A DNA stretch of 64,000 nt from Nitrospiraceae bacterium (GTDB lineage Bacteria > Nitrospirota > Nitrospiria > Nitrospirales > UBA2166), in contig PBSN01000007.1 in the NCBI GenBank assembly GCA_002726235.1, positions 1 through 64,000 of the forward strand, written 5' to 3'. Below the pieces are notes generated by a model. That model saw only the letters and a list, made by a program, of their open reading frames with translations. It was not told where the DNA came from and ran no database searches. Position numbers and translations under genes: made by a program. Positions 214 through 12,038 of the stretch are shown here, one piece after another; the first letter of the stretch is position 1; every line of letters begins with the position of its first letter.

Positions 214-953
214 CTGACCGCGACGAGTACCAGAATCCAGTTAGCGTAAGCAATATAAGCGACGATAATACCACGAACCTGTTGTGAGGGATGCTGATGC
301 CAGAAGAACCGTTGTCGATGCATACGAGATCTTGAATTTGCGATATGTGGCGATATAGATACATAAGCGGATCAAAATTGATACATGGTTGCTTCAGCAG
401 GGTTGTGGTGAGCATCAAAAGATCGTGATAAAACACAACGTAGCACACGTAATCTTGGGTGGCATTGGTATTGCTTTAGCACTGTTCTGGATTAGAAAGC
501 TGGATGTCATTATGTTGGAGTTGTACTAATTGCAACGTCAGGCCCGTTCAACGTGCGATATCACCCCTCCTGGATTCACCTCCCGTCTAATATCTGTGCT
601 AGATAGGGCGCGGCGTGCGATTGTGCAACTCCAACATAATGACATCCATGAGGTTGGACTTGGATGAGCGAGGTCAAGTCAAGTAGTGAAGGCGACGACT
701 CAGAAAGAATTGGGTTTGGGTGTCTGGGGCGATCAGCGGTGTCAGCAGTCCTGTTTTTTTCCTTCATGGCGAAACTAGGCTGGAGCAGATTTTGATCTTC
801 TAACGAGTCTTCATTGGCGTAGCGATGATATTTGAAACTGAGCTGACAGGGAGGCTGATCCGCAAAGGGTTTCTGTCTCCTGTACTGCCTATGAAGGTGC
901 GCAATCCCCTTCCCCCGTAGATCCTCTCGAACTGCATTGCGCGTGAATAGCCC

Positions 954-1466
954 TCAGTCCTCGTTTGCTATGAGTCGTCGCTTCAGAATCCACATTTCGT
1001 ACAGCGGAAGAGTGGACATCAGTACAAAGCTACTAATCATGAAGAAATCCCCCAAAAGCAAGGTGAGCGCAAAGACTTCAGAAACGTACAGGATCAACCA
1101 GGGAGAAAGAAGATCGAGGCCGACGCCTGTGAATGACATATAAGCCATGGTAATCTTGAGCCATCTGGGCGCCATAGTGAGGAAAAAAATATGGACGATG
1201 ATGAGGAAGACGATGGGCATTGTAAACAGGTGAAAGTGGGTGATTTCGGCTAATTCATGAAACGATTTTGGTTCACCGAAGGTGGCATCAGATCCGAGGT
1301 AGTGGGTGATGACGCCGTCATAGGACAACCCGTTCATCGTATAGGCCCAGTAGAGGGTGAGCGCAAATCCGATACCAACGATGCTGACGAAGAAGGTATA
1401 GACCAAGCGAATTTGGCGATCAGTATCCAGCAGCCTGAAGCGAGTGTTAAAGTTGCGCATCTTCAA
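954..1466 (-). CDS. Conserved ~4-TM membrane protein with His-rich motif (possible heme/metal-binding partner of the flavinylated protein)
   Basis: 170 aa; hydrophobic helices; EITHFHLF and IIVHIF histidines; 4-bp overlap with the FMN-binding gene. Confidence 0.7.
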   Translation of the reverse strand: MKMRNFNTRFRLLDTDRQIRLVYTFFVSIVGIGFALTLYWAYTMNGLSYDGVITHYLGSDATFGEPKSFHELAEITHFHLFTMPIVFLIIVHIFFLTMAPRWLKITMAYMSFTGVGLDLLSPWLILYVSEVFALTLLLGDFFMISSFVLMSTLPLYEMWILKRRLIANED

Positions 1467-2161
1467 TTTCCAAATAATCGATTAAAAAATCCCCGAGACG
1501 TTTTCTTCTTGTGTTCAATGGCGCCACATGGCGTTCCCTGCGGATTCAAGTAGAGTTCCTCGGTCAACACCAACGCCCGTTTTACCCCAGCGCTTGCCGA
1601 CCGGACTGACATCGTTGCCCCAGTGATGTTAATAATGTCCCGATTAATTCTGATCGGATCGTCTGATTGTTTGCCTTTGTATTGGTACATAAACCGGGGC
1701 TTGCGAATATCGGCACCACGGCTCTCTCGATAGATGAGCATCTCTACCTGGGAGACTTTGCCGGAAGGTGTGATCCCTACCATGTAAGTCATCGGGCGGT
1801 ACTTCCCAATGGTGTTTTGAATGGATGTGTATCCATCAATGGTGCCGTCTGTTTCACCGATAAAAAACTCAAAACTCGTTTCTGGGAATTTCCAGCCGAT
1901 GCGGCGCTCAATACAGGATTTTTGCTCAGGGGTAATCTTCCTGCTTTCCGCTTGAATAGTCTTGGATTGGGGGAGGAGCAATTTTAATGCTTCGTCTTCG
2001 GTTAGGTAGACGACTTCCTTCCCGATTTCTTGGGTTGTGAGCCACCGTCCGAGCTCTTCATCAAAGATTCGGTCGCGTATTTCCGCTCCATAGGATTGTG
2101 GTATTGCTTGGGTAGATAGGAGGAGGATCACGGCGATGATAGTGAACAGTGGGTGAGACAT
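1463..2161 (-). CDS. Exported FMN-binding domain protein (ApbE flavinylation substrate, RnfG/NosR FMN_bind family)
   Basis: Signal peptide from MSHPLF (start trimmed from 2296); DIINITGATMS contains the [S/T]GAT flavinylation motif; YRESRG motif. Confidence 0.85.
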   Translation of the reverse strand: MSHPLFTIIAVILLLSTQAIPQSYGAEIRDRIFDEELGRWLTTQEIGKEVVYLTEDEALKLLLPQSKTIQAESRKITPEQKSCIERRIGWKFPETSFEFFIGETDGTIDGYTSIQNTIGKYRPMTYMVGITPSGKVSQVEMLIYRESRGADIRKPRFMYQYKGKQSDDPIRINRDIINITGATMSVRSASAGVKRALVLTEELYLNPQGTPCGAIEHKKKTSRGFFNRLFGN

Positions 2162-2300
2162 TATATGGTTCGACAGTCTCGTTTTTTCCGGCGATTGGCA
2201 ATGCGTGAGAGCACGTGATGTTTGACTGCAGGTAACGCCGGTGTATGAAGCCAGCGTAGAGAGAGAGGTGTTGCCATGGGGATAACCCACACGCACCGTG

Positions 2301-2783: not shown

Positions 2784-4133
2784 TCAGAAGTACGTCGCGA
2801 CGGAAAGGACAATTCCATCGTTCATGACGTCTCGTCCGGTAATGCGGTTGGGCTCGAAATTGTACTGGTATTCAAATTTGAACACGGTATCCTCTGTTGG
2901 CCGGAAATTGATTCCTGGAGTAATCCGAAATACATCGCCTTCCAGTCCCGGAGTATCGAGGTTCGTGTTCACATCGTCAACCCGAAAAACTCCCGTAAAA
3001 ATGGAATCATCACTAAAATATTTTGGGGCCAGTTGTTGGATGAACGTCGGCATAAAGTGATAGTTGAATTGTCCATACCAGCCGAACATGCGTTCGGGGA
3101 GTCCGATGAACCGGCCATCGAGATCTCTGTCATTACCTTTAATTGTGGTATAAGCCGCCTCGCCTAAAAATTCCCACGGTCCCCGCATAAAGGTCCAGTC
3201 CAGGGCGCCGATAGTCAAGGGGCGTTTTGACTCAGGGTCGATCTTTGCATGATAGCCTGATACACCGAGTTCGACGCCTAGGATTGGGCTATAGGCCAAT
3301 CGGCCGACGAGAGCTTGGTTGTTATTGTTGTCCAGATTCAGACCAACGTCTGTGGTTTGCCAGCGAGCGCCAGCCAGCCCTCCGGCATCGGTGATTCGTG
3401 GAGTGCCATCCTTGGAAAATCCATTCATGCCTTGCGTTATATAGACCTCGTAATCTAGCTTGGAGAGTCGGGTGGGATAGAAGGTTCCAAAAACTCCTAC
3501 TCCAGGCTCACGCAGTACGCCGGGAATGACCCTGAGAGTTACTTCTGGGCGTTGTGTGAGATCGTTGATGGGAGAATCGTGGACCAGATTGAATTTGCCG
3601 ACCGGAAGGAGTATGACTCCGGCACGGAAATTGATCCACTCCGCAAAGGAGTGGTCGATGACCGCAAATTCCAGTTCTGCTTCGCCGATGCCATGTTCAA
3701 CTTCGAGTTCGGCAGCCATGCGGGTGTTTTCTGTGACATCAGAATAGATAAAGGGCACAAAACGAGTTTGATCAAAGCTAGCGTTTGGATTTCGGCGAGC
3801 ATTAGTGGGACCCTTTAGGTTGGCATATTCGAGGTCCATATACCCGCCAATTACTGCGCGGGGGTTGCTGTAGCCGGGTCTTGCATAGATGAGACCGCCA
3901 CTGCCGCCGTAGCGTAAGCCTGCTGCCTGGGCTTTGCGTTTTTGTTGTTGGTCTTCTAGGTCATGGTCGGCCAGCTCATGTTGTAGTAATTCATCGCTGA
4001 GCTTCTCGAGTTTTTTAATGCGCTCCTCAAGTGATAGTTCTTTTTCATCTTCAGCACCGACTGTTGGGGCAAATCCAAACATTAATAGTGCTGTCAGGAT
4101 CGCGATGGTGCATGATGTGCGCCTATGTTTCAC
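2784..4133 (-). CDS. Outer-membrane porin (OprO/P-like beta-barrel) with N-terminal coiled coil
   Basis: Signal peptide; LEERIKKLEK coiled coil; ELEVEHG..ELEFAVID and GKFNLVHD motifs; amphipathic strands; C-terminal ATYF. Confidence 0.85.
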   Translation of the reverse strand: MKHRRTSCTIAILTALLMFGFAPTVGAEDEKELSLEERIKKLEKLSDELLQHELADHDLEDQQQKRKAQAAGLRYGGSGGLIYARPGYSNPRAVIGGYMDLEYANLKGPTNARRNPNASFDQTRFVPFIYSDVTENTRMAAELEVEHGIGEAELEFAVIDHSFAEWINFRAGVILLPVGKFNLVHDSPINDLTQRPEVTLRVIPGVLREPGVGVFGTFYPTRLSKLDYEVYITQGMNGFSKDGTPRITDAGGLAGARWQTTDVGLNLDNNNNQALVGRLAYSPILGVELGVSGYHAKIDPESKRPLTIGALDWTFMRGPWEFLGEAAYTTIKGNDRDLDGRFIGLPERMFGWYGQFNYHFMPTFIQQLAPKYFSDDSIFTGVFRVDDVNTNLDTPGLEGDVFRITPGINFRPTEDTVFKFEYQYNFEPNRITGRDVMNDGIVLSVATYF

Positions 4134-4241: not shown

Positions 4242-5870
4242 TTACTGTTGGCTGATTGGGGTGCTCTTCCGAGAGTCTTCACGCGTTCCACAATAAGAAA
4301 ACAATGACAATGTTGAAAACCACGGTTCCACATATCTGGAACGTCTGAACGTCGTGAGATAGTCGAAACAGTAGTATTTCGAGAGTTTCTGTCCCAGCTT
4401 TGAACTGAACAGCACGGTGCCTTGGAATTCGGCTGCACGCACCACGGCAGCAACCTCATTCAATCCGCGTGCGCGCGCGACATCAAATTCCGGCGCATGA
4501 TAGGCGAACAGTCGTTGGGTCTCCCAGGTAAACACGCTGGTCTCTTCGGGATCAAAGTGGGTTTTGACATGTTCGACAAATGCACTTTGTGGAGGCATTG
4601 TCTCGGCGTAGGCCTTGACCAGGGGGAAGGTGATCAGGCTTGAAAAGATAACTGCCAGAGTGCCAATTGCGGGAGCAACTAATTTCAGCTTGGTATTGCC
4701 CCACTGGAACATCAAAACACCGATAGTCACGCCAGCCAGTGGGTAGAGAAAGAGGATAGGCGGAAGCGCATGGCGTGGGCGTTCCGGGTTTTGACCGATG
4801 AGGATCCATACTAGGTATGGTGCGATCAGTGCACCAACACTCAGCATCGCCGGACGTATTGGCTTGTGAAGCATTGCCCACAACAAGAGGAGACAAAAAC
4901 TGATTGAGAAAGGCACTCTCCATATGTTTTGTGGTGCTTCCGGCCAATATCCTCCAAGCGAAAACGCCCAGATTCCCCACCACCATGTCATGTACCGGCC
5001 CAACCCGATCTCGTCCGAAAAGACTGTGCCTCCCCAGCGGGTGAAGTGTCCGGTACTAAAGTGAATACTTGACTGAATCAATTCTGCCGATCCGGTGTGG
5101 AGGATAAGTGGGAGGATCCATACGCAAGTCCCTATTCCAAGGCCTCCACATCCCCAGAGTGCCAATTCCTTGAAACGGGTTGGCCGTTGTATGAGTATGA
5201 TGAGGGCACACCCTAGGACAAACGGCCAGTAACTCAATCGTGTTCCAAGAACTAGGCCCATCAATGCTCCTGTAGTGCCAACCCACCACAAGGAGGAAGA
5301 TCGTTTGGCGCTGGGGTAGAGTGCGTAGGTCAGTGTAAGGGCGACCCAGGGGAGGAGGGAGCACCCAAGCGCATCGCTGAGAGGTTTTTCGGCTTGTAGC
5401 CATAGGCCGGGACTCAGGAGATATAAGCTGACTGCGGTCACTCCAGCCCAGAGCACAATTCCCGACGTGGCATCATTTAAATAAGGGGAAAGGGAAGACT
5501 TTGTTGCATAACAGGAACGATCGTTCTCATTTGGTGGGGGAGGAGGGGTGATGCACCGCTTAGTCCAGTGCGAGGCGAGTAAGGCGATTGGAATCACTGC
5601 GAGTGTGCTGAAAACGATGCCAGGGAGAATCAAGGCGGTGGTGTCCTGCATGACGGTGGGTCGGATCGCCCATTGGAAGCTTTTTGCCAACGCGATGTAA
5701 ACTGGATAGCCTGGGAGGTGTGGTTGATGTTTTGCAAGATCAAACTCATGGAGCGCGAGAGCAAAGTCTACAGCGTCCCAACCTTCCAGATAGTGGCCTC
5801 GGTATAACCAGCGAAGGGTCCCTCCTGCCACAACCAAGCACAACAAAAATGATGTATATGTCCGTCTCAT
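4242..5870 (-). CDS. Polytopic membrane protein, GT-C fold (PMT/ArnT/DUF2723-like glycosyltransferase)
   Basis: ~11-13 TM segments; acidic first external loop WDAVDFALAL..HQPHLPGYP; RHALP motif; soluble C-terminal domain. Confidence 0.7.
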   Translation of the reverse strand: MRRTYTSFLLCLVVAGGTLRWLYRGHYLEGWDAVDFALALHEFDLAKHQPHLPGYPVYIALAKSFQWAIRPTVMQDTTALILPGIVFSTLAVIPIALLASHWTKRCITPPPPPNENDRSCYATKSSLSPYLNDATSGIVLWAGVTAVSLYLLSPGLWLQAEKPLSDALGCSLLPWVALTLTYALYPSAKRSSSLWWVGTTGALMGLVLGTRLSYWPFVLGCALIILIQRPTRFKELALWGCGGLGIGTCVWILPLILHTGSAELIQSSIHFSTGHFTRWGGTVFSDEIGLGRYMTWWWGIWAFSLGGYWPEAPQNIWRVPFSISFCLLLLWAMLHKPIRPAMLSVGALIAPYLVWILIGQNPERPRHALPPILFLYPLAGVTIGVLMFQWGNTKLKLVAPAIGTLAVIFSSLITFPLVKAYAETMPPQSAFVEHVKTHFDPEETSVFTWETQRLFAYHAPEFDVARARGLNEVAAVVRAAEFQGTVLFSSKLGQKLSKYYCFDYLTTFRRSRYVEPWFSTLSLFSYCGTREDSRKSTPISQQ

Positions 5871-5910
5871 AGGTTCTCGTGTGAAATTTAGTGCATGTCG
5901 TTGAGCTTAC

Positions 5911-6672
5911 TTAGTAGGCGTATCCACCTCCGGTTGCTTCTTCCGTTGGCGGCAGGGGCACTCCTCCTCCTGTTCCTCCTTGACTACTGCCGATGGTCTT
6001 GAAGTCGCCGAGGAGAAAGCCGCCTGTCACGACTACTGGGTCTGTTCCAAATACTGATCCAGAACGCTCGTGTGTTGGCGAGATATCTGATCGCATTGCA
6101 ATTCCGGGAGAAATTGCCGATTGGTTGGAGCTTCCGGCCTGGGCGGGAGCAGTGATGGTGACTTTCGCATCGTACCCTGCCTCGGAGGCTTTCAGTGTGT
6201 CAACTAAAGCGATATTTCTCGCGTAATGGAATCCTTCAGCAATACCCACGTGCGGAACAAGGGTTGTATCGAGAGATTTGCCCGTATCGCGATTTGTTAG
6301 TTTGAGGTTGACGTTTAGGTAGGGAACAAATTCGCCTTCAGCTTTGCCACCAAGAACAGCGCCAGAATACCGGATTTGTGCTTCAAAATGTATGTCGGCT
6401 GCTGTTTTTGGGGTAAGGGGTCCCCCTACTGGTTCAGCTGGTTCAAGAATCATGTCTGGGGGAGCTACTTCTAAGGTGATGGTCATATTGCCGCTAGATG
6501 CCGGCGCGTCTTCTACTAGGACCAGCTCGCCTGTAAAGTTTGGAACGGTTTCAACTGCAGGGGGGACATTACTGTCGCAACCTATTAACAGACTGAGAAT
6601 TCCAATCAAGCCCATTACCCGCACAAGCTGGCCTGCATATTTGTTCGAAGATGGTCTATGAGTCAGTATCAT
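5911..6672 (-). CDS. P19/Tp34/FetP-family periplasmic iron-transport lipoprotein
   Basis: RBS GAGGAG before MILTHR; lipobox LLIGC; motifs DIHFEAQI, GEFVPYL, LVPHVGIAEGFHYARNI match P19 DIHLEADI / WIPYL / PMVAxDGPHYGAN. Confidence 0.8.
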   Translation of the reverse strand: MILTHRPSSNKYAGQLVRVMGLIGILSLLIGCDSNVPPAVETVPNFTGELVLVEDAPASSGNMTITLEVAPPDMILEPAEPVGGPLTPKTAADIHFEAQIRYSGAVLGGKAEGEFVPYLNVNLKLTNRDTGKSLDTTLVPHVGIAEGFHYARNIALVDTLKASEAGYDAKVTITAPAQAGSSNQSAISPGIAMRSDISPTHERSGSVFGTDPVVVTGGFLLGDFKTIGSSQGGTGGGVPLPPTEEATGGGYAY

Positions 6673-6700
6673 TGTTTTTTCTCCTCGCTTCAGCTTGGGA

Positions 6701-8269
6701 TCATGGAATAGTCGTTGGGTTGCCACGGCGGGTAGCAGTTAGGATATTGGCAAATGCTGAACTAAGACGCTGCATGAAGTCTTGTGCCTGCGTTTGCGTG
6801 AAAATGGCCTGTTCTCGGTCGTCAATTGTTGTGGCATCAAAGTTTGGAGCAAGGTAATTGATATTACTGAAGAATGCCCTTGCTTCGGCGCGGGCTTTTC
6901 CAAATGCTTCGAGATCACCAGGGGCTTTCCCTCGCATACTGACGATTTCGTGGTAGACGGCGAGATAAAAGATTTGGGTCAGGCGAGTTTCGATAATACT
7001 GATGTGAGTCTGAATACCCGTTCCACCGCTCGCGATGGTGCTTGCCCCAGCTAAAAAGGCATTATCAATACTGTCTACCAGATCACAGTCGATATTGGCG
7101 GGAGTTCCAAACTCCGCCCCTTCGCAATTGCCCTCTCTGCTCGTCGCGGTTCCTCGGATAGCTTGCCAGAATGCCCAGGCCTCGTCCCAATTATGACCGG
7201 CACCTGAGATGGCGTCGATTTCCCCGGCAGGAACTTTTTCAATAACCTCATCAAATTCATGAAGCAGATTAAGGTAAAACATCCGTTGCGCACCCTTTTC
7301 GGCCCATTCGCCACATTCCATGGGAAAGATGGTGCCATTGACGTTGCAGTCGTTTCCGATTGGACGCTGGGCTAACGCATTTGCGACGTTATCTTCTGCT
7401 GAGGCTAATACAGCTGCCGTAAGGCCACGACTTGCTGCGTAGCGGCTCGGATCTTCGTATTTTATGAATGAGGTTTTGAGGTTTTCGCCAAATCCAGTAT
7501 CGGAGCCATACAGTATGCTCGCGGTCGCAAAATCTGGGAGTGCAGCATTCATTGTTTCGAAATTCGAGACAAGCGCTTGCTGTTTGTCAACGTTCCCTAT
7601 GGGCATTGTGGTGGCGGGTGGAACGCCAGTGGGTGCTATGCTCCCTGAACTTCCACTGGGAGTTTGAGGAACATTTCCTGAGCTGCCAAATGAGGTTACG
7701 GTGGTTAATATGGGGACTCCTCCAGTATCACGGAAGAGTGCAGATGGAGGTACGGCATCATAGTGAACTGCTAGAACGTTGTCTGAAAACATCGTGACTT
7801 CTAGGAGGTACTGATCGTTGAAGGGATTGCCGAGTGGATCAGATGAAGGAAGTGCCACGTTTGAACCATAGCTCCATCCCGCATCATTTCCGAGTGTAGG
7901 AACGAGATCAAACGCGAGGATTCCGGCTCCTGGATTCGAGCGATTTATAATCTGTACACGCATTCGCTGATACGGAATGAAGTCCCCGGCATTGCGAGCG
8001 CCAAACACTTGGGCTCGTTCCGCAAAGAGGCGTACTTGGAAATACATATCTGCCAGATTGTTGGAGACTTGTCCGTTAACAATAGCTGGAACGAGGGTGG
8101 TTACCTCGGCGATTTCAACCACTGCCTCAATCGTTTCTCCAAACAACTCCGCTTCGCCAAGTTCAATTGCAGAAACTGAGGGGGCCCGGGGATCTTTGGG
8201 GGCTTGTGCAAACGTGTGTGATGCCATGACAGTACATAGTAGGATCATGACGATTTGTATTTGTCTCAT
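6701..8269 (-). CDS. Exported fusion: degenerate P19-like domain + S/T/P linker + FEA1/DUF4856-like helical iron-binding domain
   Basis: Signal peptide; GDFIPYQ and LVPTLGNDAGWSYGSNVAL align with the adjacent P19 paralog; C-terminal half has KGAQRMFYLNLLHEFDE and GHNWDEAWAFW. Confidence 0.65.
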   Translation of the reverse strand: MRQIQIVMILLCTVMASHTFAQAPKDPRAPSVSAIELGEAELFGETIEAVVEIAEVTTLVPAIVNGQVSNNLADMYFQVRLFAERAQVFGARNAGDFIPYQRMRVQIINRSNPGAGILAFDLVPTLGNDAGWSYGSNVALPSSDPLGNPFNDQYLLEVTMFSDNVLAVHYDAVPPSALFRDTGGVPILTTVTSFGSSGNVPQTPSGSSGSIAPTGVPPATTMPIGNVDKQQALVSNFETMNAALPDFATASILYGSDTGFGENLKTSFIKYEDPSRYAASRGLTAAVLASAEDNVANALAQRPIGNDCNVNGTIFPMECGEWAEKGAQRMFYLNLLHEFDEVIEKVPAGEIDAISGAGHNWDEAWAFWQAIRGTATSREGNCEGAEFGTPANIDCDLVDSIDNAFLAGASTIASGGTGIQTHISIIETRLTQIFYLAVYHEIVSMRGKAPGDLEAFGKARAEARAFFSNINYLAPNFDATTIDDREQAIFTQTQAQDFMQRLSSAFANILTATRRGNPTTIP

Positions 8270-8451
8270 GCTATGAATGTCCTTTCTTTATTGACGCGAA
8301 AAACAATAAAATTTCGTCAGTTAGAATGTCTTCATGCTCTTGTCTTCCACGTCACTTCCAATATGGCTTTCTGGGGGATTTGTGTGTCATCCACAGATGG
8401 CATTGTCCGTATCTTCCTGTACACCCATTCCCGACTACGTGCGTTGATTCT

Positions 8452-9879
8452 CTATGTCGCAGTAAGCGCATCGATTTCAAGCAATGCCTTCTCGGTGCGA
8501 ATTGATTGGATATGTTTGAGGTTTCGTGAGCCTTGCATAATTTGATGTGCTGCTTCGATGCCCATTTCCATTGCCGTATCGAGGAAAATATACCTAAAGA
8601 TCCCCTGCCGTCCGCCGGTTAATACGTTCTCCATTTTTGCAACTTCTGCAAGGAGAGTATCCCTATCATGTTGATATCCAAGATGGTAGATGGGGTATCC
8701 GTGTTCGACCCACACGCTATGATGGTCGAGGGCAACCGAGTCAATGTTATATCCGAGTGATCGAAGCTCAAGGGACATTTCCTGAAATAGGGTGTTGCCA
8801 TCGGCCTCCCAGATTTTGTCACCGACTGAGCAGGGAATTTCCAGCATGATCGATGTTTTGCCTTGCGGCACCATTTCAGAGCTACGGCGTTTAGGTTCCT
8901 GGATGCGGCTCATCTTGTACTGGGGTTCCGCGATATACATCCAGGTGTTCTCGCTAAAATCTGGGATGTCGAGTGGGATGTTCAAAAAGCGAAGTGCGCG
9001 AGACCGCAGATTGCCAATCGCCGTTTCCACACCATTAGTTGATTGTGGAGCGATGTATCGTGCCAAGGCGGGCAGTGAAATTGTCGAAAATACCCATGAA
9101 CATGGCAGGAGGTATTCCTGGCCATCAACGTGATAGCGTACAGCCTTCACCCGGTTCCCGACGACGTCGAGGCCGGTCACGTCTGCTCCAAGGTGGATTA
9201 TGCCGCCTTCACGGCACATTCGGGAGGCCATTCGATCAAATAACTGGCCCATGCCAAGCCGTGGATAATAGTATCGGCGGGCATAGGTCCGAATTGGAGA
9301 TCGCCGCAAGCCAATGAGTCGCAATGCGGCATCGCCAAGATTGAGGAGAGAAATGCGTTGTGCCGCCCAGTCTGATGAAATTTGGGTGGGGGGGATGCCC
9401 CAGAGCTTTTCCGTGTACGGGCCGAAGAAGCGATCATAGAGCGGGCGGCCAAATCTGGCGGTCACCCAGCCTTCAAAATGCGATTCGTCACGTGGAGAGA
9501 TGCGGCGACGGATAAGTTCGCCCGCATACCCCAGCAAGGCCTTTAGGTTTAATCCAAGACCGAGATTCTCGACCAGATCTGGCGCGGACAGTGGATAGGC
9601 AAATCGTTTTCCGGAGTGCATCACGACAGATTTGCGCTCGGAGACGAGCATGTCGGCTCCCATCAGGTCGAGAATTCGGCTTGTGAGTTCTTGGTTTTGT
9701 GAAAGAAAGCGGTGTCCTCCAAGATCAAAACGATATTCGCCAAATGTATTTGTTGCGCAGAGTCCGCCGGGACGCGGCTCTCGCTCAAGGACCACGACAT
9801 CCCATCCTTGAGCGGCCAATTCCCACGCACAACTTAAGCCACAGGGACCGCCACCCAGTATGACAATAGGGTCTTTCAT
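8452..9879 (-). CDS. FAD-dependent oxidoreductase (HemY/UDP-galactopyranose mutase-like family)
   Basis: GGGPCG dinucleotide-binding motif, DLGGHRF, YTEKLWG, DWAAQRI, GRQGIFRY. Start at MKDPIV overlaps the bfd stop. Confidence 0.85.
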   Translation of the reverse strand: MKDPIVILGGGPCGLSCAWELAAQGWDVVVLEREPRPGGLCATNTFGEYRFDLGGHRFLSQNQELTSRILDLMGADMLVSERKSVVMHSGKRFAYPLSAPDLVENLGLGLNLKALLGYAGELIRRRISPRDESHFEGWVTARFGRPLYDRFFGPYTEKLWGIPPTQISSDWAAQRISLLNLGDAALRLIGLRRSPIRTYARRYYYPRLGMGQLFDRMASRMCREGGIIHLGADVTGLDVVGNRVKAVRYHVDGQEYLLPCSWVFSTISLPALARYIAPQSTNGVETAIGNLRSRALRFLNIPLDIPDFSENTWMYIAEPQYKMSRIQEPKRRSSEMVPQGKTSIMLEIPCSVGDKIWEADGNTLFQEMSLELRSLGYNIDSVALDHHSVWVEHGYPIYHLGYQHDRDTLLAEVAKMENVLTGGRQGIFRYIFLDTAMEMGIEAAHQIMQGSRNLKHIQSIRTEKALLEIDALTAT

Positions 9880-10073
9880 CTGGTTTCCGTTTGGGTATGG
9901 GCAGTGCATTCTGCCGCGACCTGTATCAGATCCTCGATATTCTCAGCGCATCTCCCGCAGCAATCACGGTCGAGATCGAAAGCTGTGATAAGTGAATCGG
10001 GATCAGACCCGTGTTTTGACAATGCGCATTGCATCTTCCGGTCGGTGATTCCTTTACAGAGGCACAGATACAT
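9876..10073 (-). CDS. bfd: Bacterioferritin-associated [2Fe-2S] ferredoxin
   Basis: MYLCLCKGITD...CCGRC; RBS GGAGA at 10085-10081. Confidence 0.9.
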   Translation of the reverse strand: MYLCLCKGITDRKMQCALSKHGSDPDSLITAFDLDRDCCGRCAENIEDLIQVAAECTAHTQTETR

Positions 10074-10090
10074 GATGAAGTCTCCATATG

Positions 10091-10115
10091 GATAATGCTA
10101 ATGATTATGATTATC
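10091..10115. promoter_or_regulatory. Two overlapping Fur boxes
   Basis: GATAATGCTAATGATTATG (10091-10109) and GCTAATGATTATGATTATC (10097-10115) each match GATAATGATAATCATTATC at 16/19, offset by 6 bp. Confidence 0.85.
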
Positions 10116-10116
10116 A

Positions 10117-10145
10117 ATAATAGCTTTACGCGAAGGACTTGTCAA
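10117..10145 (-). promoter_or_regulatory. Sigma70 promoter of the bfd-led iron operon
   Basis: Minus strand TTGACA (10145-10140), 17-nt spacer, TATTAT (10122-10117). The predicted start site falls inside the Fur boxes. Confidence 0.8.
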
Positions 10146-10266
10146 ATCTATAATGATTCTGCCCGTATTGACTTATAGTTGGCACAATCACATGAGGCCA
10201 CCATGTTTTCATACTTAATAAATTGCGAGGTGGCGTGGCCAAATACGTAGTGTTGACGGGAGGGAT

Positions 10267-10743
10267 GTGATGAAAGCAAAAAAAGGTGTTGTTGAGTATC
10301 TCAATAAACTTTTGACCAATGAGTTGACCGCAATCAATCAATATTTTCTCCATGCCGAGATGTGTGAGAACTGGGGGTATGATCGGCTGTATCACAAAAT
10401 TCGAGCCGAATCCGTTGACGAAATGAAACATGCAGAGGATCTTATCGAACACATTTTGTACCTGGAAGGCGTTCCCAACGTACAACGCCTTAACACCATT
10501 ACCATTGGGCAGACGGTCTTGGAACAACTCAAACTTGACCTGAAGGTGGAACAGGGAGCGGTGATCCTTTTCAACGAAGCAATTGCTCACTGTGTCAAGG
10601 TTGGGGATAACACCACGCGTAACAAACTGGAAGACATGCTGGAGTCCGAAGAGGGACACGTCGATTTCATCGAGACCCAACTTGAAACTATCAAGCAAGT
10701 TGGCCTCCAAAATTACCTCAGCCAGCAAATTAAGAACGACTAG
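10267..10743 (+). CDS. bfr: Bacterioferritin
   Basis: NELTAINQYFLH, ESVDEMKHA (heme Met), ESEEGH ferroxidase motifs. Confidence 0.97.
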   Translation: MMKAKKGVVEYLNKLLTNELTAINQYFLHAEMCENWGYDRLYHKIRAESVDEMKHAEDLIEHILYLEGVPNVQRLNTITIGQTVLEQLKLDLKVEQGAVILFNEAIAHCVKVGDNTTRNKLEDMLESEEGHVDFIETQLETIKQVGLQNYLSQQIKND

Positions 10744-11093
10744 TTTGCTGACCGAGGTCGGTCTAGCACAACACTATTCACGCGCTTGAGAAGTTTCGCT
10801 TTGCCCGCATTATCGGACAGCAGAATTTCGTTGATCACGTTGTTGGTTGATGGAAATTTACTGGTCGATGGGACAGCAGGTCTTGCAAAAGCCCGGATCA
10901 TCAAAGTTCTGAGTAATGCATGCTGGGGTTGATTTCGGCAGATCTAGCCGGAATGGAGATTTACCGTCCACAAGGCGGGTGCTAGTGATACAAAAAAGAG
11001 TTGTTCGTTGCACGGCACGAAGTGTCGGGCGCACACACGGCCGACACTCTCGAACCGCTGTGGTCAAGTAGGTTGGTGGAGGAGTAAGCAATT

Positions 11094-11113
11094 GCCACAA
11101 GAATACTTGTGGC
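11094..11113. terminator. Hairpin between convergent bfr and the lipoprotein pair
   Basis: Perfect 8-bp stem GCCACAAG-AATA-CTTGTGGC; no clear U-tract. Confidence 0.35.
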
Positions 11114-11139
11114 CCACGACTATTACAGCTCGCGAATTA

Positions 11140-11457
11140 TTACTCGTATTTGATGGCCAATCCGCGAGCGTCTGCTTGGCAGTGCAAGAGGAATGCCCAC
11201 CAACAGTTGTTGGCAATTTCTACATCAACCACGTCATCTGCACCCATTTCTTTCGCGGTCGCTGTAAGCTTGTTTAAAACGGCACCCTTGGAAATATCGG
11301 CAAATGGCATTGACCAGCCCGACACCTCAACTGTTCCTAGGACTTTATGCGGTTTTGTGATTGACTTTGAGTCGACACTCATCTGGGTCAAGGGGTAGGA
11401 ACATCCAACAAGAAATGCACTCGCGCAAATAATTGCAAGGAATTTTACGTTCATCAT
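11140..11457 (-). CDS. Small lipoprotein, YbjQ/TRL-like fold
   Basis: RBS GGAGG; lipobox LVGC; AKEMGADDVVDV..NNCWW..C.A.A.G.AIKYE. Confidence 0.7.
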   Translation of the reverse strand: MMNVKFLAIICASAFLVGCSYPLTQMSVDSKSITKPHKVLGTVEVSGWSMPFADISKGAVLNKLTATAKEMGADDVVDVEIANNCWWAFLLHCQADARGLAIKYE

Positions 11458-11489
11458 GTATGCCTCCATATCGTTTGATCGTCTCGGCT

Positions 11490-11846
11490 TTACTGAGGAT
11501 TCGCCGCATCCTCATATTTCACAGCTACGCCGAGACCGTCGGCCCAGCATCTGATTACCTCTCCGATAGCGGGAACCACCGACCAATAACAGTTATTCTT
11601 TACCCTGATATCTAGAATGTCATCTGCTCCGAGAACATCTGCTTTTGTTCGCAGCGTGTGCATCATTTTTCCAACTGCAATCTCGCCAAAAAAAGCCCAC
11701 TCGGAGGCTTCAACGGTTTGCTGCCATTTGATTGGCTTATTCACAGTCTCGGAGGTAACAATTCCCATGGGTGCCATTGAATAGGAACAGGAAATCGTCG
11801 ACAAAGACAAAAACACCAAGCAACCGAATACATGCCATCGTGTCAT
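11490..11846 (-). CDS. Small lipoprotein, paralog of the downstream gene
   Basis: RBS AAGGAG; lipobox TISC; ADVLGADDILDI..NNCYW..C.ADGLGVAVKYE. Confidence 0.7.
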   Translation of the reverse strand: MTRWHVFGCLVFLSLSTISCSYSMAPMGIVTSETVNKPIKWQQTVEASEWAFFGEIAVGKMMHTLRTKADVLGADDILDIRVKNNCYWSVVPAIGEVIRCWADGLGVAVKYEDAANPQ

Positions 11847-12038
11847 AGGGTGGCTCCTTCCCTTGAAATATATCGGAGTAACTCTCAAGCGTCTTTCGCC
11901 TTCACATATGCATGAATTGTGTCATGATCTATCATGGTTCGTTGTTCATTGTAGCACAGCAACATTGCAGAAAAGAAAAGAAGCCATCGCCATTATCTAG
12001 CTGTCCGTTATTTTCGTTCCGTTAGATAGATCAATGGT

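Follow-up and report, generated by a model that had tools for sequence, protein, structure and literature searches.

A rare fusion of a P19-fold domain to a Fea1-family domain, paired with a P19 lipoprotein, in a putative envelope iron-acquisition cluster of a Nitrospiraceae bacterium

Are two iron-capture folds joined in one exported protein of a Nitrospiraceae bacterium, and what might such a protein do? The question is raised by a gene in the window, that is, the whole stretch of 64,000 nucleotides at the start of contig PBSN01000007.1 (assembly GCA_002726235.1), for which an earlier note had described, from the letters alone, a P19-like domain followed by an iron-binding domain of the FEA1/DUF4856 or imelysin kind. 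The reading frame was found as given there, with an ATG start and 522 aa on the minus strand (6701..8269), and it is not a chance ORF, because full-length relatives of 25-88% identity exist and all four of its cysteines are conserved in 16 of the 18 rows of alignment A1. The quoted motifs are all present (K325-G326...F331-Y332....H337-E338, and HNWDEAWAFW at residues 359-368), as are the two Cys pairs (Cys308/Cys319 and Cys382/Cys395), the S/T/P/G linker (Table 1) and the helical C-terminal part, which AF2 modelled from residues 215-522 as 13 helices with a pLDDT of 97.4 and a pTM of 0.94. The joining of a P19-fold domain to a Fea1-family domain was confirmed, with both Pfam families above their curated cut-offs and Foldseek and phmmer in agreement. 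In our literature searches we found no paper on a P19-Fea1 fusion, and the architecture is rare, being represented by 11 full-length representative clusters among 1.84 billion representatives. Annotation pipelines have already tagged relatives with both Pfam families, and two of these proteins are named 'iron transporter'. One candidate relative, P0019, was rejected as a family member and left out of alignments A2 and A4 and of the tree, since it is a P19-P19 tandem with no Fea1 domain. Degenerate-pattern scans were made with single proteins and with the narrower alignment A5; A1 contains no sufficiently conserved stretch.

The N-terminus of the fusion has the features of a Sec signal. Residues 2-19 form a lone helix in the AF2 model, and the pattern ...AFAQxPKxPR is conserved among relatives. 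A lipoprotein was considered and rejected, Cys12 being unconserved and outside any lipobox. In the whole-chain model (pTM 0.64) the arrangement of the two domains was not confidently predicted, and the linker between them is short or missing in Myxococcota-type relatives. We consider it moderately probable that the fusion is a Sec-exported periplasmic protein of an iron-regulated envelope iron-acquisition cluster, a grading that applies to this explanation as a whole.

Table 1. Features of the fusion gene and its surroundings (positions in the window; residue numbers are those of the encoded protein)
Feature	Position	Strand	Basis or remark
Small multi-pass membrane protein, Aq_1264_TM-like	954..1466	-	3-5 hydrophobic segments; overlaps FMN_bind stop by 4 nt
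Extracytoplasmic FMN_bind protein, T-G-A-T flavinylation-type motif	1463..2296	-	PF04205, 32.7 bits (cut-off 22)
Small lipoprotein, 153 aa	2301..2762	-	Lipobox L-I-G-C
Outer-membrane porin-like beta-barrel, N-terminal coiled coil	2784..4133	-	Signal peptide, C-terminal ...ATYF
GT-C-fold glycosyltransferase-like membrane protein, TMEM260/PMT_2-like	4242..5870	-	PF11028, 25.1 bits (cut-off 24.2), marginal
Stand-alone P19 lipoprotein, C-terminal GGGY-x-Y tail	5911..6726	-	PF10634, 63.2 bits; lipobox L-I-G-C50
Fusion gene, P19-fold domain plus Fea1-family domain	6701..8269	-	522 aa, ATG start
Helical domain of the Fea1 family, residues ~225-522; four-helix-bundle core, two Cys pairs	6704..7597	-	PF07692, AF2
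Flexible S/T/P/G-rich linker, residues ~193-224	7598..7693	-	Sequence; AF2 pLDDT <50 for 202-214
P19/FetP-fold beta-sandwich, residues ~25-192, degenerate metal-ligand positions	7694..8197	-	PF10634, profile search, Foldseek
Signal peptide, residues 1-21, likely cleaved after T-F-A	8207..8269	-	Read from sequence
FAD-dependent oxidoreductase, cytoplasmic, amine-oxidase/GLF-like, PRK07208 type; first gene of putative operon	8452..9909	-	PF01593, NF005547
Fur-box-like site, divergent promoter region between FAD oxidoreductase and bacterioferritin genes	10091..10121	.	Consensus match
Sigma-70-like promoter match, the best in the region, directed into the operon	10117..10145	-	TTGACA-17-TATTAT
Bacterioferritin, divergently transcribed	10267..10743	+	TIGR00754 bfr, 190.3 bits (cut-off 125.55)

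For the C-terminal domain, the Pfam model PF07692 (Fea1) scored 29.9 bits (cut-off 25), albeit over residues 335-370 only, and phmmer searches with the fusion retrieved strong Fea1 proteins such as P0023 and P0051 (184.9 and 179.2 bits to PF07692, respectively); 31 of the 40 members of alignment A2 matched Fea1 at E<=1. The fusion keeps the family-conserved residues K325, H337, E338, H359, W361, D362, E363, W365, R378 and E462. Among the 22 non-fusion rows of A2, D362 is found in 21, E338 and E363 in 20 each, H359 in 18, E462 in 15 and H337 in 12, and every one of these residues is present in the fusion. The canonical Arg/Lys-Tyr pair of the third core helix, with R or K at position 440 in 13 and Y at position 441 in 12 of the same 22 rows, is absent from the fusion, which has H440-E441 there; in the fusion-family rows, 10 of 18 retain the full Fea1 polar core including E441, and H440 is found in 11 of 18. 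The two Cys pairs, of the disulfide type, are absent from the other aligned Fea1 proteins. Judging from the distance of each residue to the helix ends in the DSSP string of the model, H337/E338, H359/D362/E363, E462 and the family-specific H440/E441 would be gathered towards one common end of the four-helix core. A His-Glu pair at 440/441 would fit a softer His/carboxylate Fe(II) site better than a tyrosinate plus carbonate Fe(III) site. In the available parts of PMC7966952 and PMC7676907, the phytotransferrin ISIP2A is described as carrying PF07692, FEA1 and FEA2 as induced by low iron, and Ot-Fea1 as purified with ferric iron.

The earlier note had also placed this domain near imelysins and DUF4856 proteins. 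A relationship to imelysin was rejected, since hhalign of A2, the profile of the C-terminal domain, against the two imelysins of locus L031 gave probabilities of 0.3% and 0.1% and no imelysin-family chain was among the best 50 VIA-align matches or the Foldseek matches listed, which does not by itself exclude the imelysin fold of two four-helix bundles; in addition, the fusion had no Pfam match to imelysin/peptidase M75 (PF09375) at E<=1. In fold searches the domain did resemble four-helix bundles, but generic ones only. Specifically, Foldseek against the PDB gave no match at E<=0.001 (best E 0.08, TM 0.19), and the wide VIA-align search gave none at Z>=8 among 48,161 chains, its best match being the vinculin tail (Z 6.8, rmsd 3.5, 138 residues aligned) and its matches being generic helical bundles. 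A profile search of PDB sequences with the domain returned one chance-level match (E 0.78), and no solved structure related to the Fea1 domain was found among the PDB searches run. From the model, the fold may be called a 'four-helix-bundle core' at most, which is not proof of a new fold. DUF4856 (PF16148) was not matched in the fusion, but weak, sub-threshold matches at E<=1 in 11 of the 40 A2 members (best 9.8e-5), overlapping their Fea1 region, suggest a remote relationship between Fea1 and DUF4856 rather than membership.

The N-terminal domain is assigned to the P19/FetP fold by a marginal match to PF10634 (Iron_transport; 23.2 bits at residues 65-155, cut-off 21), which rises to 36-43 bits in relatives, and by profile matches to the solved HftA/Tp34 (E 9.4e-5). 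With the full-length model, whose N-terminal domain has a pLDDT of mostly 87-97, Foldseek gave 34 PDB matches at E<=0.001, led by P19/FetP/FtrA/Tp34/HftA chains with TM to target of 0.58-0.73 over ~165 aligned columns at 15-21% identity; the best was Campylobacter jejuni P19 (6wef_A; E 4.9e-5 and a TM to target of 0.73 over 165 columns). The copper ligands of FetP we take to be His44, Met90, His97 and a histidine of the M-H-R-H-T-D loop, residue roles that are partly corroborated by the variants M90I, M88I, E46Q and E44Q in PDB titles. A search of PMC7285068 for the FetP ligand residues found none. In the fused domain the ligand positions are occupied by Y76, Q78, R80, T125, A130 and S133: Y76, T125 and S133 stand at copper-ligand positions, only H169 of the H-x-D loop being retained, and Q78, R80 and A130 align with the acidic iron/manganese site, for which the part of PMC9174327 available gives Glu3, Glu44, Asp46 and Asp92. 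The relatives P0003, P0004, P0006, P0009 and P0011, by contrast, retain the H/E/H/E/H set of P19 ligands in A1. Both folds of the 'two iron-capture folds' are there, but with the ligands for copper and iron missing from the P19 domain, it is probably only the Fea1 half that binds metal in this protein. Nor are the two folds 'unrelated' in the functional sense, because both domain families partner FTR1-type permeases elsewhere; the algal protein P0031, for example, is an FTR1-Fea1 fusion.

A second P19 is encoded by the next gene, and it differs from the fused one in its ligands. This stand-alone lipoprotein matched FetP (3nrp) in phmmer at E 3.9e-10 and keeps H113, E115, H159, E164 and H167 at the ligand positions, with His159 where FetP has Met90 and R212 in place of the H-x-D histidine. 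The loss is complementary, the fused domain retaining only H169 and the lipoprotein keeping the cis positions but having lost that histidine. We found the stand-alone P19 gene directly downstream of the fusion gene in all 10 other loci (L008, L009, L011, L024-L027 and L029-L031, of which L008 and L029 may be one organism). In the tree the two P19 lineages form separate clades (support 100/99 for the stand-alone and 94/94 for the fused proteins) with a similar branching order.

The surrounding genes form a putative operon that begins with the FAD oxidoreductase gene (PF01593, 86.1 bits; NF005547, 399.5 bits, cut-off 380; no hydrophobic segment). An outer-membrane component is present in all 10 other loci, being porin-like in seven and a TonB-dependent receptor instead in three; the porin-like protein of the window had no match in the Pfam search, and its orthologues in L009 and L027 gave weak BBP2 or Porin_O_P matches under the cut-off. 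The small lipoprotein, with a weak DUF3576 match (20.2 bits, cut-off 25), is conserved in L008 and L009. The FMN_bind protein, whose gene is found in 4 of the 10 other loci, contains ...NITGATMS..., which fits the [S/T]GA[S/T] motif described as the ApbE target in the accessible part of PMC8238504. ApbE, needed to flavinylate this protein, was not found in genome G000 and is present in G001 and G004. Wherever the FMN_bind gene was seen with it, in L008, L009, L025 and L026, the gene for the small membrane protein was its constant companion; as a lead only, this protein has an atlas feature score of 0.97 to PF27139 clusters. The bacterioferritin gene is adjacent in L008 and L009 as well, and in L031 the fusion/P19 pair lies next to imelysin-DHOR-imelysin genes. 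No inner-membrane iron transporter is encoded in the cluster. FTR1 (PF03239), in a search whose control was positive in 4 of 14 genomes, was found in none of three genomes of the genus, which at 90.65, 98 and 96% completeness do not prove its absence, and FeoB_C was not found in G000. A Nramp-like gene lies on contig C8 (32.7 bits, cut-off 29.8), with no link to the cluster.

Uptake genes under repression by iron typically have a Fur-box-like operator over their promoter, and such an arrangement was observed upstream of the putative operon. The 19-mer at 10097-10115 has 2 mismatches, and overlapping 19-mers 3-5, to the E. coli Fur consensus; the site is the sole one with <=5 mismatches in the 64-kb window, and L008, L009, L024 and L025 have similar sites in the corresponding intergenic regions. 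The promoter match, a consensus match only, agrees at 11 of 12 positions and its -10 element overlaps the Fur-like site; the total of sigma-70-like sites (13) is not above the shuffled expectation (9.1 +/- 3.1). The cluster is apparently iron-regulated. A weak hint of expression came from a hydrothermal-vent metatranscriptome assembly, in which 7 short contigs, possibly DNA carry-over, matched the cluster at >=99% identity, one of them (6977-7302) within the Fea1 domain; no sequence of the RNA runs X21 and X22 matched the cluster, which is no evidence of silence.

The reading that we favour, with moderate confidence, is that of a periplasmic iron-capture system within an iron-regulated cluster, in which metal is bound by the Fea1 domain, while the P19 lipoprotein is the docking partner of the degenerate P19 domain. 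Metal would enter through the dedicated outer-membrane channel and be captured by the Fea1 domain; the fused P19 domain would probably have a docking or dimerising role, keeping Fea1 against the ligand-intact lipoprotein, at which copper-dependent handling of iron could take place as in P19/FetP. Electrons for the cycling of iron between Fe(III) and Fe(II) may be delivered or withdrawn by the FMN_bind protein together with the small membrane protein, a role that has been suggested for other clusters in which P19 is accompanied by an FMN-binding gene. A bolder and, in our view, rather unlikely version can be drawn from the complementary ligand loss: the fused P19 and the P19 lipoprotein would be an obligate, pseudo-symmetric heterodimer derived from a P19 homodimer, so that only one composite copper site could form, across the interface, with Fea1 tethered beside it, and, together with the outer-membrane channel, the flavoprotein module and the GT-C-like protein, the pair would constitute an FTR1-independent, envelope-spanning uptake machine.

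Other explanations for the same cluster were considered. It is unlikely, to a greater degree than the heterodimer, that the cargo is not iron but copper, manganese, zinc or some other divalent cation, the His/Glu-rich variant Fea1 site and the His-rich site of the stand-alone P19 acting as a periplasmic chaperone or uptake pair. Such a cargo would suit the change from Arg/Lys-Tyr to His-Glu at 440/441 and the His159 of the stand-alone P19 at the position of FetP Met90, and a solved FtrA/P19 binds Ni too (title of 7r3s), but all of the context signals, namely the divergent bacterioferritin gene, the Fur-like site, the imelysin/DHOR genes of L031 and the TonB-dependent receptors, are those of iron. 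In P19/FetP, copper is reportedly needed as a cofactor when iron is transported rather than being transported itself, a result said to be that of Chan et al. in 2020, which also counts against another metal. On the other side, copper is bound by P19 proteins in addition to iron or manganese, according to PDB titles and the available portion of PMC9174327.

A glycoprotein or cell-envelope module with no metal binding seems to us more improbable again. The P19 pair would then be substrates or partners of the GT-C-like and the FAD-dependent (GLF-like) enzymes, their Ig-like folds and Ser/Thr/Gly-rich linker and tail being modified. The GT-C-like gene, encoding at least 7 hydrophobic segments, is found in 7 of the 10 other loci, and the FAD oxidoreductase gene adjoins the fusion gene in 6 of them, with up to 57% identity across phyla; the fusion linker is rich in S, T and G, as are the partner P19 tails. 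Atlas neighbours of the GT-C-like protein carry PMT_2, TMEM260-like, Glyco_transf_22 or GT87, which we take as a lead only. Moreover, the divergent relatives P0010 and P0012-P0022, which include the Myxococcota loci L011, L024 and L031, have lost most of the proposed ligands in both domains and in their stand-alone P19, yet the pairing of the genes is kept. This counts against the favoured reading too, as what the family conserves may be something other than metal binding at the proposed sites. However, the full Fea1 polar core is retained by the fusion and by the 10 fusion-family rows counted above, five rows also have a complete P19 ligand set, the context is iron-related, the Pfam match of the GT-C-like protein is marginal, and a glycosylated protein could still bind metal. 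Least likely of all, and improbable, is a periplasmic redox or detoxification device, rather than an uptake system, in which the P19 copper site and the flavoprotein cycle iron as a ferroxidase or ferrireductase with bacterioferritin-type storage and Fea1 holds the product: a permease was found neither in the cluster nor in the genome, the FMN_bind and small membrane proteins are present and the DNA recurs in marine and vent metagenomes (habitat labels only), where reduced iron is available, but the Fur-box-like operator follows the pattern of uptake genes, the TonB-dependent receptors of three loci imply import, and the role of permease could fall to the Nramp-like gene on contig C8.

Fea1/ISIP2A-type domains are central to marine algal iron uptake, and the fusion family offers a tractable route to the Fea1 fold and its ligands, because it is small and bacterial, has a confident AF2 model (pLDDT 97) and contains a domain that should be open to testing, on its own, by recombinant expression. 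The fixed P19 pairing, the complementary ligand loss and the failure to find FTR1 suggest that the activity of P19-type proteins is not confined to the textbook P19-FTR1 scheme. Marine and hydrothermal-vent metagenomes of many studies contain this DNA as well, and the system may therefore be relevant to how uncultured deep-sea bacteria acquire iron. Should the heterodimeric machine prove true, it would be an FTR1-independent kind not yet described, and would provide a bacterial context for a phytotransferrin-type domain.

Among known systems, the bacterial FEA1-related lipoproteins of NF038033 are similar in that the stand-alone Fea1-family proteins P0027, P0028 and P0038 (387, 425 and 277 bits, cut-off 250) align with the C-terminal domain, but the fusion is not an NF038033 equivalog, scoring 46.5 bits, far under the cut-off, having a plain signal peptide ending in T-F-A and no lipobox, and bearing an extra P19 domain. 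EfeO of the EfeUOB system has an N-terminal cupredoxin-like domain and a C-terminal M75/imelysin-like helical domain. The fusion is analogous to it as a periplasmic protein combining a copper-type beta-sandwich with a helical-bundle domain that has a His/Glu metal site (PMC9174327, available part), although the two have no detectable homology by the hhalign comparison given above, P19 is not a cupredoxin, and EfeO works with an FTR1-type permease, EfeU, for which no counterpart was found here. P19 genes are clustered with an FMN-binding gene in 260 clusters (Meheust et al. 2021, PMC8238504), which, as far as the accessible part of that source goes, share with the present cluster an extracytoplasmic FMN_bind protein with the [S/T]GA[S/T] motif; those clusters are mostly Gram-positive and described together with FTR1, whereas the present one is diderm, with a porin or TonB-dependent receptor, has no FTR1 and encodes a pair of P19 paralogues of which one carries the Fea1 domain.

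Algal FEA1/ISIP2A (PF07692) shares the K-G...H-E and H-x-W-D-E-x-W core motifs with the fusion and, according to the available parts of PMC7966952 and PMC7676907, the extracytoplasmic location and the low-iron context. The fusion differs in being bacterial, in carrying a single Fea1 domain on a P19 domain and in having His-Glu for Arg/Lys-Tyr at 440/441 and the extra Cys pairs, and endocytosis, which ISIP2A uses, is inapplicable to it. The P19/FetP/FtrA/Tp34/HftA proteins (PF10634) have the same beta-sandwich and are periplasmic, and the neighbouring stand-alone copy keeps their His/Glu/His positions. In contrast to P19/FetP, the P19 domain of the fusion bears a Fea1 domain and degenerate ligand positions, with no FTR1-type permease found in the three genomes, and whereas the known systems use a single homodimeric P19, here the fused P19 forms a fixed pair with a second, paralogous one.

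The reading frame proposed for the fusion protein in the earlier note was borne out: it starts with ATG, encodes 522 aa and carries all the motifs quoted there (K325-G...F331-Y....H337-E338, HNWDEAWAFW at 359-368, and the pairs Cys308/319 and Cys382/395). Residues 1-21 form a hydrophobic signal-type segment with T-F-A at its end; a lipoprotein reading was rejected, since this segment contains no lipobox and relatives do not share Cys12. The joining of a P19-like domain to a Fea1-family domain was confirmed by Pfam matches above cut-off, with 23.2 bits for PF10634 (Iron_transport, the P19 family; cut-off 21) over residues 65-155 and 29.9 bits for PF07692 (Fea1; cut-off 25) over residues 335-370; the NCBIfam model 'FEA1-related lipoprotein' matched residues 334-483 with 46.5 bits, below its cut-off of 250. 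The full-length predicted structure (alignment A4, 43 sequences; mean pLDDT 91.1, pTM 0.64) falls under pLDDT 50 at residues 202-214, suggesting two confident domains on a flexible tether, whose mutual orientation is not reliable. Foldseek matched this model to 34 PDB chains at E<=0.001, led by the P19-family chains C. jejuni P19, E. coli FetP, Brucella and Rubrivivax FtrA, T. pallidum Tp34 and T. denticola HftA (TM to target 0.58-0.73, about 165 aligned columns, 15-21% identity).

Coordinates of the features discussed (contig positions for loci outside the window)
Feature	Locus	Coordinates	Strand	Remarks
FAD oxidoreductase	window	8452-9909	-	GLF-like (UDP-galactopyranose mutase) sub-match
Fusion protein	window	6701-8269	-	
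Stand-alone P19	window	5911-6726	-	directly downstream of fusion; PF10634 63.2 bits; FetP E 3.9e-10
C-terminus of stand-alone P19	window	5911-5940	-	
GT-C-fold membrane protein	window	4242-5870	-	TMEM260/PMT_2-like
Small membrane protein	window	954-1466	-	after FMN_bind gene
Fur-like site	window	10097-10115		
Metatranscriptome contig	window	6977-7302		within Fea1 domain
Two adjacent small ORFs	window	11140-11469, 11490-11888	-	109 and 132 aa
TonB-dependent receptor	L011	7214-10000		in porin's place
TonB-dependent receptor	L024	11235-13997	-	in porin's place
TonB-dependent receptor	L031	307-2838		in porin's place
Imelysin, di-haem oxidoreductase (DHOR), imelysin	L031 (metagenome contig)	5239-8958		after fusion and P19 pair
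Tandem P19 pair	L028 (Armatimonadota MAG)	~10037-11229		no Fea1 domain
Tandem P19 pair	L032 (short metagenome contig)	351-1651		no Fea1 domain

Residues 215-522, modelled from alignment A2 of the C-terminal domain (40 sequences: 22 non-fusion Fea1 and 18 fusion-family), are all-helical (mean pLDDT 97.4, pTM 0.94), with a long four-helix-bundle core (helices 316-345, 357-382, 419-447 and 453-473). Foldseek, VIA-align and a profile search of the PDB found no experimentally solved relative: the domain model alone had no significant Foldseek match in the PDB (best E 0.08), VIA-align against 48,161 representative chains returned generic bundles only, none at Z>=8 (best Z 6.8, rmsd 3.5 A, 138 residues), and the domain profile against all PDB sequences gave one chance-level match. 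By sequence, the domain is a distant Fea1 member. A phmmer search of 1.84 billion representatives with the whole fusion protein gave 45 matches at E<=0.001; where a match is confined to residues ~312-495, Pfam scores the protein as a strong Fea1 member (P0023, 184.9 bits; P0051, 179.2; P0040, 167.2; P0049, 131.8; P0031, 129.8), and bona fide bacterial 'FEA1-related lipoproteins' are among the matches (P0027, 387 bits; P0028, 425; P0038, 277). Every residue listed as conserved across the 22 non-fusion rows of A2 is retained in the window protein, namely D362 (21 rows), E338, E363 and W365 (20 each), H359 and R378 (18 each), E462 (15) and H337 (12). At positions 440/441, however, other Fea1 proteins have mostly Arg/Lys-Tyr (13 and 12 of the 22 rows), whereas His-Glu stands there in the window protein and much of its fusion family (H in 11 of 18 rows, E in 10), and the four Cys of the fusion family are absent at those columns from other Fea1 proteins. 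According to two reviews (PMC7966952 and PMC7676907), the diatom phytotransferrin ISIP2A and the low-iron-induced FEA1/FEA2 of Chlamydomonas carry the PF07692 domain, and a related Ostreococcus protein had ferric iron present on purification. The DUF4856 likeness suggested earlier was seen, as weak matches, in some relatives and not in the window protein: 11 of the 40 A2 members matched this family at E<=1 (best 9.8e-5) over the Fea1 region, a hint of a remote Fea1-DUF4856 relationship, and the window protein gave no match at that threshold. The suggested imelysin link found no support: Pfam gave no match, the fold-search lists contained no imelysin chain, and hhalign of A2 with two imelysins of locus L031 returned probabilities of 0.3% and 0.1%.

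Ligand positions in the P19 domains were assigned by alignment to solved FetP and HftA, taking the FetP copper ligands to be His44, Met90, His97 and the M-H-R-H-T-D loop histidine of the other subunit. Partial support for this set comes from the titles of PDB variants (M90I and E46Q of FetP; M88I, E44Q and D92H of P19) and from the Mn-site residues Glu3, Glu44, Asp46 and Asp92 given in PMC9174327. The equivalent positions in the fused P19 domain of the window are Y76, Q78, R80, T125, A130 and S133, so the domain is degenerate there, and P0002, a homologue 88% identical to the window fusion, is almost equally degenerate (H, Q, R, T, E, Q). Five relatives (P0003, P0004, P0006, P0009 and P0011) retain H/E/H/E/H, so the loss is recent and lineage-specific. 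The sole ligand-type histidine left is H169, in a conserved H-x-D motif aligned to the M-H-R-H-T-D loop; its equivalence to His125 or His127 of FetP hinges on a 2-residue gap and is uncertain. The partner P19, a lipoprotein by its lipobox L-I-G-C50, retains H113, E115, H159 (at the position of the Met ligand), E164 and H167, whereas R212 replaces the H-x-D histidine that is found in the orthologues at L009, L025, L026 and L027. The two paralogues of this lineage have thus each lost one of two complementary halves of the canonical copper site between subunits, as expected if the two P19s formed a heterodimer with a single composite copper site; this is one evolutionary event, the window and loci L008 and L029 being close kin.

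On balance, the best-supported reading is an iron-regulated periplasmic capture-and-relay system, in which the Fea1 domain would bind iron, the degenerate P19 domain would tether it to the ligand-intact P19 lipoprotein, and a flavoprotein module would cycle the redox state. The main caveat is that, in the divergent relatives P0010 and P0012-P0022, most candidate ligands are gone from both domains and from the partner P19, although the gene pair persists. A rival reading, a system for a metal other than iron, is unlikely.

As to iron regulation in the capture-and-relay reading, the eight cluster genes, from 9909 down to 954, all lie on the minus strand, separated by short gaps or overlapping, and the window begins at the contig end just past the last of them. 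A Fur-like site, with 2 mismatches to the E. coli Fur consensus, lies between the first cluster gene and a divergent bacterioferritin gene and is the sole one with <=5 mismatches within the 64-kb window. The best promoter-like match of the region (TTGACA-17-TATTAT, minus strand) overlaps it with its -10 element, and comparable sites were present in the equivalent regions of L008, L009, L024 and L025. The two adjacent small ORFs look like paralogous lipoproteins, with Cys-Ser-Tyr in the lipobox region, similar C-terminal halves and the ends ...GLAIKYE and ...GVAVKYED. Window DNA was found in at least 20 runs (14 studies) with marine, seawater or hydrothermal-vent metagenome labels, and one of these runs may be its source. 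One vent metatranscriptome assembly contained seven contigs (249-326 nt, at least 99% identity) spread across the cluster, RNA-library contigs being no proof of transcription. A contig of RNA run X20 (a single contig, depth 8) has one extra T behind position 2476, in the gene of the 153-aa lipoprotein; DNA run X5 matches the window at this point, and strain variation or misassembly may account for the extra base.

The window's nine proteins were placed by tblastn on ten other fusion loci (L008, L009, L011, L024-L027 and L029-L031), of which L008 and L029, with identical percentages, may be one organism. The stand-alone P19 was directly downstream of the fusion in all ten and an outer-membrane component adjoined in all ten (porin-like barrel in seven, TonB-dependent receptor in three), with the GT-C-like protein in seven, the FAD oxidoreductase in six, and the FMN_bind gene plus small membrane protein in four, several contigs ending too early to tell. 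The three receptors have a TonB_C domain at the N-terminus, ahead of the plug, an unusual arrangement. The GT-C protein and the FAD enzyme accompany the P19 pair across phyla; between Nitrospiraceae-type and deltaproteobacterial loci the FAD enzyme is 57% identical and the fusion 36%. From this co-occurrence the Ig-like P19 proteins could be glycosylated; that the whole system serves a glycoprotein or envelope role tied to these two genes, present in seven and six of the ten loci, is quite unlikely. All eight partner P19s compared (window, L008, L009, L011, L024-L027) have a low-complexity tail, acidic or rich in S/T/G, and after it a conserved C-terminal G-G-G-Y-x-Y (or G-Y-I-A-P); this ending might mark them for recognition by the porin/receptor or the GT-C protein. 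Pro is the last residue in nearly all fusion proteins.

FTR1-type permeases are normally the partners of P19 and Fea1 proteins. FTR1 (PF03239) was found in none of three genomes of the window's genus (G000, G001 and G004; completeness 90.65, 98 and 96%), in a search whose control was positive in 4 of 14 genomes; in the Myxococcota genome G415, FTR1 lies on another contig. A search for FeoB_C in G000 was negative, and a Nramp-like gene lies elsewhere in the window's genome. The redox step of the capture-and-relay reading follows a proposal of redox cycling for P19 clusters with an FMN-binding gene, of which PMC8238504 gives 260, and T-G-A-T of the FMN_bind protein fits the ApbE flavinylation motif described there. 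ApbE is present in G001 and G004 and was not found in G000. The small membrane protein resembles the recently defined Aq_1264_TM (PF27139; atlas score 0.97), has several conserved-looking His in hydrophobic segments, and may be a membrane electron conduit for the flavoprotein. A further rival, a periplasmic iron-redox role with no uptake, is very unlikely.

The fusion is rare. Among 5.8 billion proteins searched through a word index, 8 matched, the window's own included, and 11 of the 45 phmmer matches are relatives that contain both domains at full length (458-516 aa: P0006, P0009-P0013, P0015-P0017, P0021 and P0022); P0008, P0014, P0018 and P0020 are fragments. P0019 (456 aa) was rejected as a P19-P19 tandem and excluded from the P19 tree. 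Other architectures were seen in P0024, a P19 domain followed by ~470 residues without assignment, and P0031 of the alga Chrysophaeum taylorii, in which 1194 aa join an FTR1 permease to Fea1 domains. Of the 4 other genomes of the genus, 2 have the fusion; it was found in none of 36 others of the order, in none of 400 others sampled from the phylum, in 2 of 401 Myxococcota genomes, and at 4 loci from a scan of 241 million metagenome records. Close relatives are labelled Nitrospiraceae, more distant ones Myxococcota, 'Deltaproteobacteria' or 'bacterium'. Tandem P19 paralogues without a Fea1 domain at L028 and L032 suggest that the P19 pair is probably older than the fusion and represents its ancestral, unfused state; at L032 an FAD oxidoreductase gene immediately precedes the pair. 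A maximum-likelihood tree puts the partner P19s in one clade (100/99) and the fused domains in a second (94/94), and the branching order within the two is similar.

Both domain families and the association of P19 with FMN_bind are already known, and annotation pipelines tag relatives with both Pfam families, two of them being named 'iron transporter'. In the literature searched (most subscription journals outside coverage), we found no description of a P19-Fea1 fusion and no report of FetP together with Fea1; phytotransferrin with P19 led only to phytoplankton work, and PF07692 by name only to diatom work.
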